Assembly (NCBI RefSeq): GCF_003334255.1
Contig: NZ_QOWU01000085.1
DNA: 10,225 nt
Direction: 5' to 3' (one strand)
DNA from: Escherichia coli
Lineage (GTDB): Bacteria > Pseudomonadota > Gammaproteobacteria > Enterobacterales > Enterobacteriaceae
Below, one piece after another: positions 4,996 to 9,897 of this stretch; the stretch's first letter is position 1, and every line of letters starts with the position of its first letter. A program made the position numbers and the translations under genes. The notes below the pieces were generated by a model. That model was not told the origin of the DNA and ran no database searches. It was given only the letters and a program-made list of their open reading frames with translations.

Positions 4996-5326
4996 GCTTA
5001 ACCTCCTTCATTCTGGTTTCAGCTTTTCTAAGCTCGGCAGGTGGAGTTTTTTGCGTTTTCTTTACAAAGCTATGCAACATAATGATTCGCTTTCCTTTTA
5101 GCGTGCAGTAAAAAACACGCCCTATGCCTTCCGAGCCCTTAAGGCGGATTTCAAACAAACCGTCGCCAAATGCCTCTGTATGCGGGGAACCAAGATTAGC
5201 TCCGTAAATACGCATTTTCTCCGTGTACCGAATGTACCGGGCTTGTAAGGTCTCAGGAAGAGAAAGGATCTCAGCTTCAACCTCGTCACTGTAGTATTCG
5301 ATAATGTAGTTCATGAGAGTAAACAT
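4985..5326 (-). CDS. RelE/ParE-superfamily toxin (Gp49/HigB-like) of a type II toxin-antitoxin pair
   Basis: 113 aa from the ATG at 5326. The C-terminal half GRVFYCTLKGKRIIMLHSFVKKTQKTPPAELRKAETRMKEV fits the Gp49/HigB-type pattern. The toxin-first gene order and 11-nt overlap with the antitoxin are typical of HigBA-type modules. The GTG-initiated 42-codon extension in the track ORF is not expected for this family. Confidence 0.8.
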   Translation of the reverse strand: MFTLMNYIIEYYSDEVEAEILSLPETLQARYIRYTEKMRIYGANLGSPHTEAFGDGLFEIRLKGSEGIGRVFYCTLKGKRIIMLHSFVKKTQKTPPAELRKAETRMKEVKHDW

Positions 5327-5338
5327 AACAAATTTGTT
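5327..5338. promoter_or_regulatory. Perfect 12-bp palindrome AACAAATTTGTT immediately upstream of the toxin start; candidate operator
   Basis: Read directly. It lies between a -10-like TATATA (minus strand) and the toxin ATG. Type II antitoxins typically autoregulate through palindromic operators. Confidence 0.4.
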
Positions 5339-5356
5339 ATATACATTCAAGGTATG

Positions 5357-5386
5357 TTGACGACAACACATATCCGGGATTATATT
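5357..5386 (+). promoter_or_regulatory. Sigma70-like promoter (TTGACG-N17-TTATAT) on the + strand, back-to-back with the minus-strand toxin promoter
   Basis: ttgacg at 5357..5362 and ttatat/tatatt at 5380..5386, read directly. On the minus strand TTGTCG-N17-TATATA sits just upstream of the toxin ATG. Confidence 0.4.
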
Positions 5387-5448
5387 CTTCGCACGCCAGC
5401 AAAATCTGGCGTCGGGATTAGGAACCCCGGATAGAAACCGCGACAGAG

Positions 5449-5470
5449 ACACGCCGCGAGCGTGTTTTTT
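5449..5470 (+). terminator. Intrinsic terminator (acacgc-cgcga-gcgtgt followed by TTTTT)
   Basis: 6-bp stem, 5-nt loop and T5 tract, read directly. It lies about 60-80 nt downstream of the + strand promoter, which would delimit a short transcript. Confidence 0.55.
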
Positions 5471-5633
5471 ATTGTCGTATGCACACGCACATCTGAATTA
5501 TGGTGGGGCGTATAGGGGAGCTGAAAAGCTCGCCGGTTGGTTTCCCGGTAGTTCCTAACCCTGTACGTCTCGCCACCCGATGATTAGGAACCTGACGGTG
5601 GTGATAGTTTAGAAACCACTCGAGGGCGTCATT

Positions 5634-6305
5634 ATGACAACTCAAGTTTCTGTTGAAACACTCTCCACGATTACTTACAAGCAGATCCCCGTTATCACTA
5701 CCGAACTTTTGGCGCACCTTTACGGCACAGAAGCTATTCGTATTCGCCAGAATCACCACGAAAACAAAGGTCGTTTCATTGAGGAAAAACACTTCTTCAA
5801 ACTTGAAGGTGAAACTTTACGTGAGTTCAAGCACAGAGTAGCTTTTAACTACTCTGTGAAAATTGCCCGTAACGTTCGCTCCCTCATCCTATGGACAGAA
5901 CGCGGCGCAGCCCGTCATGCAAAAATGCTCGAAACCGATCGGGCGTGGGAAGTGTTCGAAAAACTGGAAGACTGCTATTTCAGCCAGGGAAAAACAACAC
6001 AAACCGAACAGCAGTCGCAGATTCAGCCACAATTCACAGCCGAGGAAATCATCCTCCTTTGCTACATGCAACTCTGGATGGAAAAAGCCCAGGACCTTAA
6101 CAAGCAGCTGTACCCCATAATGAAAGAGCTGAACTCCTCATACACGAACAAGCTGTATGACATTGCGTTTGAGACTATCTACATGGTGACGAAGAACAGA
6201 GACGCGCTACTAAGGGAGGTAACACGTCTCGACATGTCAAGTTCCGTTATCCAGCGGGCCATGCCAATGCTGAAAAGCCTGCGGGCAAGACAATTTGAAT
6301 TCTGA
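5634..6305 (+). CDS. Roi-like DNA-binding protein (ORF6N-type N-terminal domain, antirepressor-like)
   Basis: 223 aa with SD GAGGG 7 nt upstream. The N-terminal region (TELLAHLYGTEAIRIRQNHHENKGRFIEEKHFFKLEGE...LILWTERGAARHAKMLETDRAWEVFEKL) resembles the ORF6N/Roi-type domain as I recall it. It sits just before ninB, as roi-like genes do in HK022-type nin regions. Confidence 0.55.
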   Translation: MTTQVSVETLSTITYKQIPVITTELLAHLYGTEAIRIRQNHHENKGRFIEEKHFFKLEGETLREFKHRVAFNYSVKIARNVRSLILWTERGAARHAKMLETDRAWEVFEKLEDCYFSQGKTTQTEQQSQIQPQFTAEEIILLCYMQLWMEKAQDLNKQLYPIMKELNSSYTNKLYDIAFETIYMVTKNRDALLREVTRLDMSSSVIQRAMPMLKSLRARQFEF

Positions 6306-7828: not shown

Positions 7829-8063
7829 TATTCAGCAGGTGCCTGAACGCATGGCTTTATTCAGGTCGTCTGGAAAAGCGCATGAGCAGCGTAATAGCGG
7901 AGTTCATGGCGAAGAGTATATGAACAGATTATTCGAATGCTATATGAGACTGAAGCACGGAGATCGCTATGACCTGACACGTGATGCTGACGGTTTCTAC
8001 TGCCGTGAAGTTGTGAAACGAATGTTTGAAGTGTGGTGTCATTGTAAAGGATGGGGGCTGTGA
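7821..8063 (+). CDS. Hypothetical small protein (80 aa) between ninH and the Q-like gene
   Basis: The ATG at 7821 overlaps the ninH stop (ATGCGTGA), with GGGGA upstream. The track ORF begins at 7716 but would then overlap ninH by about 110 nt. Cys/His-rich C-terminus (CREVVKRMFEVWCHCKGW). No family recognised. Confidence 0.5.
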   Translation: MRDIQQVPERMALFRSSGKAHEQRNSGVHGEEYMNRLFECYMRLKHGDRYDLTRDADGFYCREVVKRMFEVWCHCKGWGL

Positions 8064-8677
8064 TGCGGCTAACCCCAGTATTCGGCATGGTTAACTTTAT
8101 TAATGATGCTCATTTCCGCCGCATATGGAGGCATCCGAAGAAAATCATTAACTCTCGTCAGAAAGCATGGGTTCACTACATGCTACAGGTATGGGGAAAT
8201 GTTAACGCTGGTGATGATTCTCCTTGTGGTGCAATTAACGTTATTGGGCGACTGATGATTCGCAGTCAGTGGAGCGATGACAAAGCTAAGCAGATTGAGT
8301 CTGTTGTCATGCGTCTGTATGAAGAAGACGGACTACGTGGAGATGAACTCCATCAGAAAGCCCGAGAACTGGTCATCCCTCAGTCATCGGCAGGTAATAT
8401 CATTGCTCTCGCCAAAGAATCCGATGATGCTGCTTTCGTTGAACGTGTGATGGTTGAGACCTTTCATCGTGAAAGCCCTGTCCGTGATGTAGCTATTAGG
8501 CGATATTGCAATCGCGACAGCACGCAAGATATCGCCAGGATGATTTCTCAGATAACAGGAGTTGATATTCAGTATTGCCGGAGGCGGGTCGTGTGGTGCG
8601 AGAGGGTCCTTGATTCAGAAATGTTTTATGCAATGAAGCGAGAATTGGAGAAAGAACTTCTAGTGATTGCTGGATGA
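8063..8677 (+). CDS. Putative late-gene regulator (Q antiterminator-like by position), family uncertain
   Basis: 204 aa from the ATG at 8063, overlapping the upstream stop (TGATG) with a G-rich SD. It is the last gene before a promoter-plus-terminator region and the late-gene start, where Q lies in lambdoid phages. The sequence does not resemble lambda Q as I recall it, so the call is positional. Confidence 0.4.
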   Translation: MRLTPVFGMVNFINDAHFRRIWRHPKKIINSRQKAWVHYMLQVWGNVNAGDDSPCGAINVIGRLMIRSQWSDDKAKQIESVVMRLYEEDGLRGDELHQKARELVIPQSSAGNIIALAKESDDAAFVERVMVETFHRESPVRDVAIRRYCNRDSTQDIARMISQITGVDIQYCRRRVVWCERVLDSEMFYAMKRELEKELLVIAG

Positions 8678-9068: not shown

Positions 9069-9383
9069 TCCAAACTGAGCCGTAGCCTCTGGGTGTCCTG
9101 AATTCATCAGTGATAGTTACGCTGCGGCCTTCTACATACGATTTTTGTGAAAAGCGGGTGGCAAGAGGCTGCGAAATTTTTAAATACCTCACAATTCCAC
9201 AGCTTGATGATTGTCTGGCTGCCGGAGAATTTGTTAAAAATTGCATCGCGTGGTGAATCCCCCTCAGCGGCGGGGCATCTGGCAAAGTGTATGATCCAGC
9301 GAACATGCAAATTCAGTAGCCAGGCTGAATTTACCGGGAGGCACCTGGCACCATGCGACAGACAGAAATTAGGCTATACTTCA

Positions 9384-9406
9384 GCCCCTCTCCGGAGGGG
9401 CTTTTC
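9384..9406 (+). terminator. Intrinsic terminator of unit 1 (gcccctc-tccg-gaggggc followed by TTTTC)
   Basis: Perfect 7-bp GC-rich stem, tccg tetraloop and T tract, read directly. Confidence 0.75.
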
Positions 9407-9596
9407 TGTGCAGGATGTGTCACAGTTTCCTGAATTCTGAGTACTGTCCTGTTACTCAGGGTGCTATATTTTCTGACGTGATGAAAGTCTGCCGGAAGGC
9501 GGAACGTATCGGAAATGACCCAGTAGAGAAAACGTTGACTCAGATACCGATGCTGAGTTACCGGGAAACCGGCATCACATGACCGCTATCCTTCCA

Positions 9597-9619: not shown

Positions 9620-9866
9620 ACTGCAGAAAACAGTTTTCCCGTAAAATGCCACGTTACTCACAATTCAGGCTGGCGATTATTGTCTGGCCAGCGGGAAGTT
9701 TGTTAAAAAAATATGGCATGGTGAATCCCCCTGTGCGGAGGGGCATATCAGCGACAGGTGTTTGGTCACACCCCTTATCCTTTCTGGTGCGGGTTCAGGT
9801 GCTGATACTGAACTCACCGGGAGGCACCCTGCACCATGCATGAACGGTACATAGCGCTACTCTCCA

Positions 9867-9890
9867 GCCCCTCTCCGGAGGGGCTTTCTT
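9867..9890 (+). terminator. Intrinsic terminator of unit 3 (gcccctc-tccg-gaggggc followed by TTTCTT)
   Basis: Stem and loop identical to the unit 1 terminator, read directly. Confidence 0.75.
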
Positions 9891-9897
9891 GTTGGAT

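Follow-up and report, generated by a model that had tools for sequence, protein, structure and literature searches.

A probable isrK–C4 antirepressor cassette in the nin region of a lambda-immunity Escherichia coli prophage

The locus and its relatives

The window, by which we mean the whole analyzed stretch of 10,225 nucleotides (Escherichia coli assembly GCF_003334255.1, contig NZ_QOWU01000085.1), matches a prophage of E. coli strain G1/2 with 100% identity. In that prophage the order is cI, cro, cII and replication genes, followed by a RelE/ParE-HTH toxin–antitoxin pair on the other strand and then by the cassette that is the subject of this work; downstream of the cassette lie ninB, ninE, rusA, ninH and a Q-like gene. 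An earlier note, made from the sequence alone, had predicted a short transcript of about 80 nt at the start of the cassette, with its own promoter and terminator, and had proposed that it could be a small RNA or an attenuated leader of the nin operon. We annotate the following features at this place:

5357..5386, + strand: promoter P_isrK (−35 TTGACG at 5357-5362, 18-nt spacer, −10 TATATT at 5381-5386)
5393..5470, + strand: IsrK-family small RNA (78 nt; Rfam RF01394), predicted to be also the 5′ leader of a read-through transcript
5393..5412, + strand: IsrK hairpin 1 (stem 5393-5399/5406-5412, loop CAAAAT)
5413..5429, + strand: IsrK hairpin 2 (stem CGGG/CCCG; loop element TTAGGAAC at 5418-5425, complementary to C4 at 5551-5558)
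5432..5439, + strand: IsrK single-stranded recognition element TAGAAACC, of which GAAACC at 5434-5439 is complementary to the C4 loop GGTTTC at 5539-5544
5449..5470, + strand: IsrK intrinsic terminator (stem ACACGC/GCGTGT at 5449-5454/5460-5465, loop CGCGA, U-run at 5465-5470)
5496..5580, + strand: C4-type antisense RNA element (full-length Rfam RF01695 match with 66 bits; gathering score 45)
5501..5584, + strand: 27-codon frame, the counterpart of the 'orf45' of Gifsy-1, which begins at a conserved AUG inside C4
5584..5618, + strand: leader target sites for C4 (TTAGGAAC at 5584-5591 and GAAACCA at 5612-5618)
5634..6305, + strand: antirepressor gene ant, 223 aa, the output of the cassette (full-length match to phrog_377 'anti-repressor Ant', E 1.5e-83)

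The product of 5634-6305, labeled ORF6N domain protein in RefSeq, had been taken for roi-like in the earlier note. It is not roi; the phrog_377 match, the two Pfam domains ORF6N and P22_AR_C and the similarity to AnrP of Gifsy-1 identify it as an Ant-type antirepressor. Over its first 149 aa Ant shares 60% identity with AnrP (STM2616), while its C-terminal part differs. The gene begins 53 nt past C4, with no icd ORF in between.

Similar DNA was found in 274-291 phage records, most of them Stx-converting, and in 736 of the 5426 complete E. coli genomes. For comparison, 17 further loci were scanned, which come from Stx phages, phiP27, cdtI, N15, a Klebsiella N15-like phage, an Actinobacillus phage, APSE-7, P1, P7, a Pseudomonas phage and Gifsy-1. 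In all 18 loci an IsrK-like unit is followed by C4, and both stand upstream of ant, icd, a BRO gene or an unannotated first gene. The gap between IsrK and C4 measures 22-27 nt in 15 of the 18; it is 25-26 nt in P1 and P7 and 39 nt in the Pseudomonas phage. The labels 'isrK' and 'C4 antisense RNA' already stand side by side in the annotation of APSE phages, as also published (PMC7313666), and of Stx2 phage F039. Some GenBank phage records place hypothetical CDSs over the IsrK/C4 stretch, and RefSeq leaves it unannotated.

The IsrK unit with its terminator and promoter

The covariance search that the earlier note had proposed returned a full-length match. Rfam isrK (RF01394) aligns to 5393-5470 over model positions 1-77 of 77 with 69.2 bits (gathering score 50) and an E-value of 1.6e-13, so that the predicted transcript corresponds, judged by its sequence, to IsrK, an already known small RNA of prophages. 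The 78-nt unit has a minimum free energy (MFE) of −27.3 kcal/mol and is more stable than 200 of 200 shuffled sequences (z = −2.87). Its MFE and centroid structures agree with the Rfam model, in which two 5′ hairpins are followed by the terminator hairpin and a U-run. The perfect hairpin cgccag-caaaat-ctggcg that had been described at 5394-5411 is indeed present, and its full stem is longer, extending over 5393-5399/5406-5412; among 17 loci it carries compensatory changes at five of the six aligned pairs. Its loop CAAAAUC is conserved and has no partner in C4. A tRNA/tmRNA scan found nothing.

The intrinsic terminator that had been placed at 5449-5470 is part of the Rfam isrK consensus, and RNA folding and conservation confirm it. 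When the loci were checked one by one, all 18 were found to have a GC-rich hairpin of their own here with 5-8 U in a row behind it, and in the alignment of 17 loci four consecutive U of this run are invariant and in register. A simple terminator scan, performed window-wide and over a narrow range, did not list the + strand terminator at 5449-5470. In our reading the scan missed it because the U-run is a possible pairing partner of the GAGA upstream, and the extension of the stem then consumes the tail. RNAalifold on a MAFFT alignment also missed the terminator, with stems of unequal length being misaligned; the call is based on the Rfam alignment, RNAfold and conservation.

A sigma70 scan of both strands of the whole window gave TTGACG-N18-TATATT as its top match (10/12), directly ahead of the unit. 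Overall, the window holds no excess of promoter-like sequences (7 sites, with 10.9 expected). In the alignment of 17 diverged loci, TTGA of the −35 element and TAnnnT of the −10 element are invariant and in register, and the distance from the end of the −10 element to the first RNA base is 7 nt. In E. coli O104:H4 the DNA upstream of 5371 is unrelated, and TTGACA-N18-TATATT is nevertheless kept. We predict that transcription of IsrK starts at A5393, the position at which the Rfam isrK model begins as well. The promoter had been described before as TTGACG-N17-TTATAT; the site is the same, while this parsing is one base off and gives a −10 element with a poorer fit to the consensus than TATATT. 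At the level of sequence, a small RNA unit of 78 nt with its own promoter and an intrinsic terminator, close to the expected 80 nt, is thus supported. Inspection of 5340-5395 for repressor control revealed no lambda-type operator and no LexA box at P_isrK, and a C1-type operator as annotated for P7 is absent as well. The immunity region of the prophage has lambda-like OR operators. The −35 element of P_isrK is 42 nt away from the toxin ATG (5314), with a palindrome at 5325-5340 in between, and a back-to-back arrangement of P_isrK with the toxin promoter is plausible.

It could be argued that all this reflects chance likeness to promoters and terminators, or a small ORF, with no RNA function behind it. 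The missing enrichment of promoter-like sequences, the silence of the terminator scan at the site and the hypothetical CDSs in some GenBank records would fit such a reading. The covariance-model E-values of 1.6e-13 for isrK and 2.2e-11 for C4 are hard to reconcile with it, as is the conservation of promoter, hairpins and U-run across distant phages, and the region shows no conservation of reading frames. Together with the layout shared by 18 loci and the covariation described below, these data effectively refute it.

The other possibility raised before, a lambda tR2-like leader of the nin operon, deserves more attention. The unit would then be an attenuator that halts unmodified rightward early transcription before nin and Q, and the short RNA would be a by-product. 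Its position suits this role, since it lies on the strand of cro, cII, the replication genes, nin and Q just upstream of ninB, and an intrinsic terminator would also stop non-antiterminated transcripts that arrive from upstream. However, a lambda tR2-type terminator has no promoter of its own, whereas the IsrK unit has a conserved, dedicated promoter immediately upstream, 7 nt ahead of the RNA start. In addition, the unit travels as a cassette, being found also outside nin regions and in the non-lambdoid phages P1, P7, N15 and APSE, and the internal sequence of the unit follows that of C4 and the ant leader, which is unexpected for a mere terminator. We consider the attenuator an unlikely explanation of the unit, although unmodified PR transcripts may, as a side effect, be stopped by the IsrK terminator as well. 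Returning to IsrK as part of a cassette, the choice between a small RNA and an attenuated leader would fall away: by the isrK-C4-ant layout the RNA is expected to be both, a small RNA and the 5′ leader of a longer transcript.

C4, the ant leader and their pairing with IsrK

The C4 element, which starts 25 nt downstream of IsrK, exposes two recognition elements: TGGTTTC in a hairpin loop (5538-5544) and the single-stranded GTTCCTAA (5551-5558). Exact complements of GTTCCTAA are found in the IsrK hairpin-2 loop at 5418-5425 and in the leader at 5584-5591, and complements of the loop element in GAAACC of IsrK (5434-5439) and in GAAACCA of the leader (5612-5618). We describe these elements by position, the a/b naming being different among sources. 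In the window, TTAGGAAC has three matches where 0.18 are expected, and it occurs nowhere besides this network; TAGAAACC has three matches against 0.30 expected, one of which, at 7992, is unrelated. With the threshold relaxed, the Rfam family c4-a1b1 (RF03163), which represents the a1 and b1 targets of C4, overlaps the 5′ half of IsrK with 44.2 bits, below the threshold of 46.7 that several sister loci reach.

The downstream site GAAACCA ends at 5618, which is 3 nt before the Shine-Dalgarno sequence GAGGG of ant (5622-5626). It does not overlap this sequence and is within the 30S footprint. Occlusion of the ribosome-binding region of ant by C4 is for this reason plausible but not certain: the leader site stops 3 nt upstream and leaves the Shine-Dalgarno sequence itself uncovered. 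This arrangement differs from that in P7, where the site GATTGTGAGG includes the Shine-Dalgarno sequence, and from phiP27 and APSE, where the C4 target site includes it as well.

The 27-codon frame that begins inside C4 ends at 5582-5584, 47 nt upstream of the ant ATG at 5634. Across the 18 loci orf45-type frames vary in length, the shortest having 14 codons and the longest more than 64, including an in-frame fusion, and we rejected a coding reading of the IsrK/C4 region on the basis of this lack of conservation. By its sequence, the 27-codon frame is probably not a conserved coding gene, and its AUG more likely owes its conservation to the closing stem of C4, to which it belongs.

If C4 recognizes both IsrK and the leader, the elements should change together between loci, and this is what we see. 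Among 17 loci the recognition elements vary in sequence yet remain complementary at fixed positions. The C4 elements fit the IsrK and the leader of their own locus better than those of other loci: when the locus assignments were permuted 20,000 times over the 17 loci, none of the 20,000 permutations reached the observed fit in any of the four comparisons. A formal pair count on the MAFFT alignment of 18 loci, which covers the IsrK loop against C4 (at the leader sites the MAFFT gaps are inconsistent), gave 85.5% paired cells for this helix compared to 64.0% in shuffles, and 24 two-sided changes compared to 7.4, with none of 500 shuffles as high. Slid controls for this count were all far lower. 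IsrK, C4 and the ant leader hence co-vary in all three partners. No combination of the two recognition elements recurs among the 18 loci. Between P1 and P7 the C4 loop element has changed along with its targets, and this difference is said to be the basis of their immI heteroimmunity.

We had also calculated whole-segment duplex energies between the C4 loops and their targets. Here, cognate partners scored better on average, but the data are noisy because of the conserved stems, with some leaders ranking only 5-7, and we replaced them by complementarity at the level of the elements, with the permutation and the formal pair count. Folding of the long leader by MFE and cofold gave small cofold gains only and did not tell 'structure A' of Gifsy-1 from its 'structure B'; MFE folding cannot represent loop-loop contacts.

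The covariation also bears on the idea that IsrK is a free-standing, Hfq-dependent small RNA that acts in trans mainly on host mRNAs and has no role in the expression of the adjacent gene. The Rfam family carries the name 'isrK Hfq binding RNA', and other prophage small RNAs of pathogenic E. coli are reported to act on host RNAs (PMC4104026, PMC7547250). The conserved hairpin-1 loop, for which C4 offers no partner, would also be available for such contacts. On the other hand, the variable positions follow the neighboring C4 and leader rather than a fixed host target, IsrK always stands beside C4 and an ant-type gene, and in Gifsy-1 the phenotype needed the local isrK-anrP locus (PMC4825925). 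We judge this explanation to be slightly less likely still than the attenuator. IsrK may nonetheless have additional host targets.

Known systems and a model of the switch

A close homologue of the locus, isrK-orf45-anrP of Gifsy-1, has been characterized. Its layout is alike, with a promoter, a three-hairpin RNA of 77-78 nt with a terminator, a C4-like element (orf45/STnc1160) and an AnrP-type antirepressor. The two IsrK RNAs are identical at 69 of 78 positions, and the differences are confined to the two recognition elements, TTAGGAAC/GAAACC here and TTGGCGT/TCACCG in Gifsy-1; the partners in C4 and leader differ too, and the differences between the two C4 RNAs fall into the complementary elements. 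The terminator is base-for-base that of Gifsy-1 IsrK, including identical flanks. What is different is the coupling frame and the position: orf45 has 45 codons in Gifsy-1 with a stop that overlaps the anrP start, whereas its counterpart here has 27 codons and is uncoupled, and our cassette precedes ninB and is separated from the Q-like gene further downstream by about 2.4 kb, while that of Gifsy-1 is found just downstream of antQ.

In Gifsy-1, P_isrK gives rise to a short terminated RNA and, through a leaky terminator, to a read-through isrK-orf45-anrP mRNA, and both are needed (Hershko-Shalev et al. 2016, PMC4825925). The long transcript is translationally silent, and short IsrK provided in trans increases anrP translation more than 100-fold (PMC4825925). 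IsrK and AnrP promote Gifsy-1 induction, a phenotype that required the local isrK-anrP locus, and the mechanism relies on orf45 translation (PMC4825925). A stable processed RNA, STnc1160, derives from the orf45 region (PMC4825925). The earlier note had counted read-through in place of a discrete terminated product against its proposal; read-through is, however, part of the Gifsy-1 mechanism with the identical terminator (PMC4825925), and is to be expected at our locus too.

[quoted passage not shown] In Gifsy-1 numbering, G28 and G31 fall into the hairpin-2 loop element, and C159 and C162 lie within the C4 match of Rfam, in its single-stranded element. It follows that the helix mapped in Gifsy-1 is the same as the co-varying helix described above, and that the Gifsy-1 'orf45/STnc1160' is a C4-type RNA. 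Because the frame at our locus has 27 codons and ends 47 nt short of ant, the coupling step of Gifsy-1 cannot transfer unchanged. A further observation from Gifsy-1 is that a cis mutation in IsrK that weakens the pairing of the loop with C4 leads to higher basal expression (PMC4825925). Since a pure decoy does not predict this, the cis form of IsrK is, by analogy with Gifsy-1, probably inhibitory and the trans form activating, and a simple model of IsrK as a decoy for C4 understates the complexity of the direction and of the cis/trans logic.

The second related system is the immI region of P1 and P7, which according to Citron and Schuster (1990, 1992) reportedly consists of the a1/b1 sites, the C4 antisense RNA, the a2/b2 sites, icd and ant1/2, and in which C4 is said to be a repressor RNA that blocks icd/ant, with RNase P releasing it from the precursor as a stable RNA of about 77 nt, and icd to be required for ant expression. 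The P7 record annotates c4 as an antisense RNA that acts on icd and ant and comes from the same promoter, and reviews state that c4 represses Ant synthesis in P1 and P7. As in immI, C4 at our locus is situated between two sets of complementary sites under one promoter and an antirepressor is controlled; unlike in immI, there is no icd, and ant directly follows the leader. The P1/P7 leaders score 43.7-47.9 bits with the isrK model and contain a hairpin and a U-run between the upstream sites and c4, while the P1/P7 c4-a1b1 model (RF03163) stays below threshold at our locus. Judged by sequence, IsrK in lambdoid phages appears to correspond to the immI leader of P1.

The CI RNA of P4, with seqA and seqC, and the CA RNA of N15 are alike in that one transcript holds a processed small RNA together with complementary sites upstream and downstream of it. 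The anti-immunity locus of N15, which is matched by both the isrK and the C4 models and precedes antC, is described as acting via premature transcription termination. So is the P4 system, whose SeqA was named a structural homologue of IsrK (PMC4825925). Compared to this termination control in P4 and N15, the sequence of our locus is compatible with either a translational or a termination mode.

With a probability of roughly 85%, we read the region 5357-5470 as the promoter and first element of an antirepressor cassette of the P1 immI/Gifsy-1 isrK type that resides in the nin region of a lambda-immunity prophage. The family matches, the layout, the complementarity and its covariation among the three partners are established for this locus itself. 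In the model that follows, the formation of a short and a long RNA, the activation by IsrK in trans and the pairing of the hairpin-2 loop with C4 are carried over from the Gifsy-1 experiments, and the role of C4 as a processed repressor RNA from P1 and P7. P_isrK would initiate at about 5393, and most transcripts would end at about 5465-5470 to give a short IsrK of about 75-78 nt. A fraction would read through and produce the C4-type RNA (5496-5580) together with the ant mRNA from 5634. The C4 elements 5538-5544 and 5551-5558, in cis or after processing, would pair with the leader at 5584-5591 and 5612-5618, so that ant would stay untranslated. The copies of both sites in IsrK (5418-5425 and 5434-5439) would be able to pair with C4 as well. 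Accumulating short IsrK would then target, in trans, the C4 carried by the long transcript and turn ant translation on, and Ant would antagonize the prophage repressor and cause induction of the prophage. We infer the start site, the efficiency of termination and the processing of C4 for this prophage, and likewise the identity of the switch logic, direct occlusion near the ribosome-binding site of ant and the resident lambda-type repressor as the target of Ant.

RNA family and type of locus are known, and a close homologue has been characterized. This instance differs only in its recognition specificity, in the missing orf45 coupling frame and in its genomic position. The main value of the analysis hence lies in the annotation: a stretch that RefSeq leaves blank is a known regulatory RNA pair that controls an antirepressor. 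It also links two literatures, in that the Gifsy-1 orf45/STnc1160 corresponds to C4 RNA and IsrK to the a1/b1 leader of P1. This link is not new in kind, as Rfam holds isrK, C4 and c4-a1b1 and the Gifsy-1 paper points to seqA/CI of P4.

One may speculate, with some doubt, that the recognition elements form a specificity code which insulates or cross-wires the switches of co-resident prophages, and that C4 here occludes the ribosome-binding region of ant directly while IsrK serves as an anti-antisense RNA. If true, the cassette would work more simply than in the Gifsy-1 model as published, and a lambda-immunity prophage would gain a RecA-independent route to induction. Because such cassettes are widespread and most of the phage records are from Stx phages, control of spontaneous induction by IsrK/C4 could affect Shiga-toxin phage biology. 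In Stx2a phages the cassette is found near the integrase end.

Immunity of the host prophage and cassette copies

The cassette of IsrK, C4 antisense RNA and antirepressor gene ant is located in a lambda-immunity prophage. We conclude this from the lambda-type OR operators in the prophage's cI-cro intergenic region, which lie just left of the window (L001 coordinates):

L001 380-470: lambda-type OR operators TATCACCGCAAGGGATAA, TAACACCGTGCGTGTTGA and TACCTCTAGCGGTGATAA

Lambda itself lacks an antirepressor cassette of this kind. Many E. coli genomes contain 2-4 places that match the cassette; in E. coli G1/2 (NZ_CP060083.1), which has a prophage 100% identical over the window, there are 2.

Elements around the IsrK promoter and in the ant leader

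The positions in the window are:

5314, minus strand: ATG start of the RelE/ParE-type toxin gene
5325-5340: perfect 16-bp palindrome ATAACAAATTTGTTAT, between this start and the -35 element of P_isrK, the IsrK promoter
5598-5604: GGTGGTG motif, between both C4-complementary leader target sites ahead of ant

This palindrome probably serves the toxin-antitoxin operon as its operator. The P_isrK -35 element TTGACGACAA reads TTGTCGTCAA on the opposite strand, and therefore this region may be common to the two divergent promoters, that of the toxin-antitoxin operon and P_isrK.

The GGTGGTG motif is conserved at the equivalent position in nearly all related loci and is complementary to CACCACC, the 3' strand of the C4 closing stem. 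After unfolding or cleavage of C4, the two could form an alternative hairpin around the first leader site.

In the P_isrK spacer, a (T/C)CGGGG motif is kept in many homologues; it could be what remains of a duplication, or else a site for a protein.

The spacer sequence CGGGATTA (5375-5382) recurs in IsrK hairpin 2 (5413-5420), and TATCCGGGATT is complementary to AACCCCGGATA (window 5371-5381 versus 5423-5433).

Public annotations and a tandem RNA pair

Several public records carry annotated CDSs over IsrK/C4:

L002 2985-3224: phage phi346
L013 1314-1604: N15 gene 32
L007 1034-1177

Labelled hypothetical or "transcriptional repressor", they begin within the two RNAs or cross them. Because the reading frames over IsrK/C4 are not conserved, these CDS calls, or at minimum their starts, look spurious.

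Further along the window, two copies of the Rfam family STnc100 stand in tandem downstream of a Q-like antiterminator gene, and each copy ends in the terminator hairpin AGCCCCTCTCCGGAGGGGCT:

8051-8677: Q-like antiterminator gene (phrog_753)
9218-9411, plus strand: STnc100 copy 1 (138.7 bits)
9687-9896, plus strand: STnc100 copy 2 (129.9 bits)

The pair may represent duplicated short leader RNAs of a late promoter, of the StxS or lambda 6S RNA kind.
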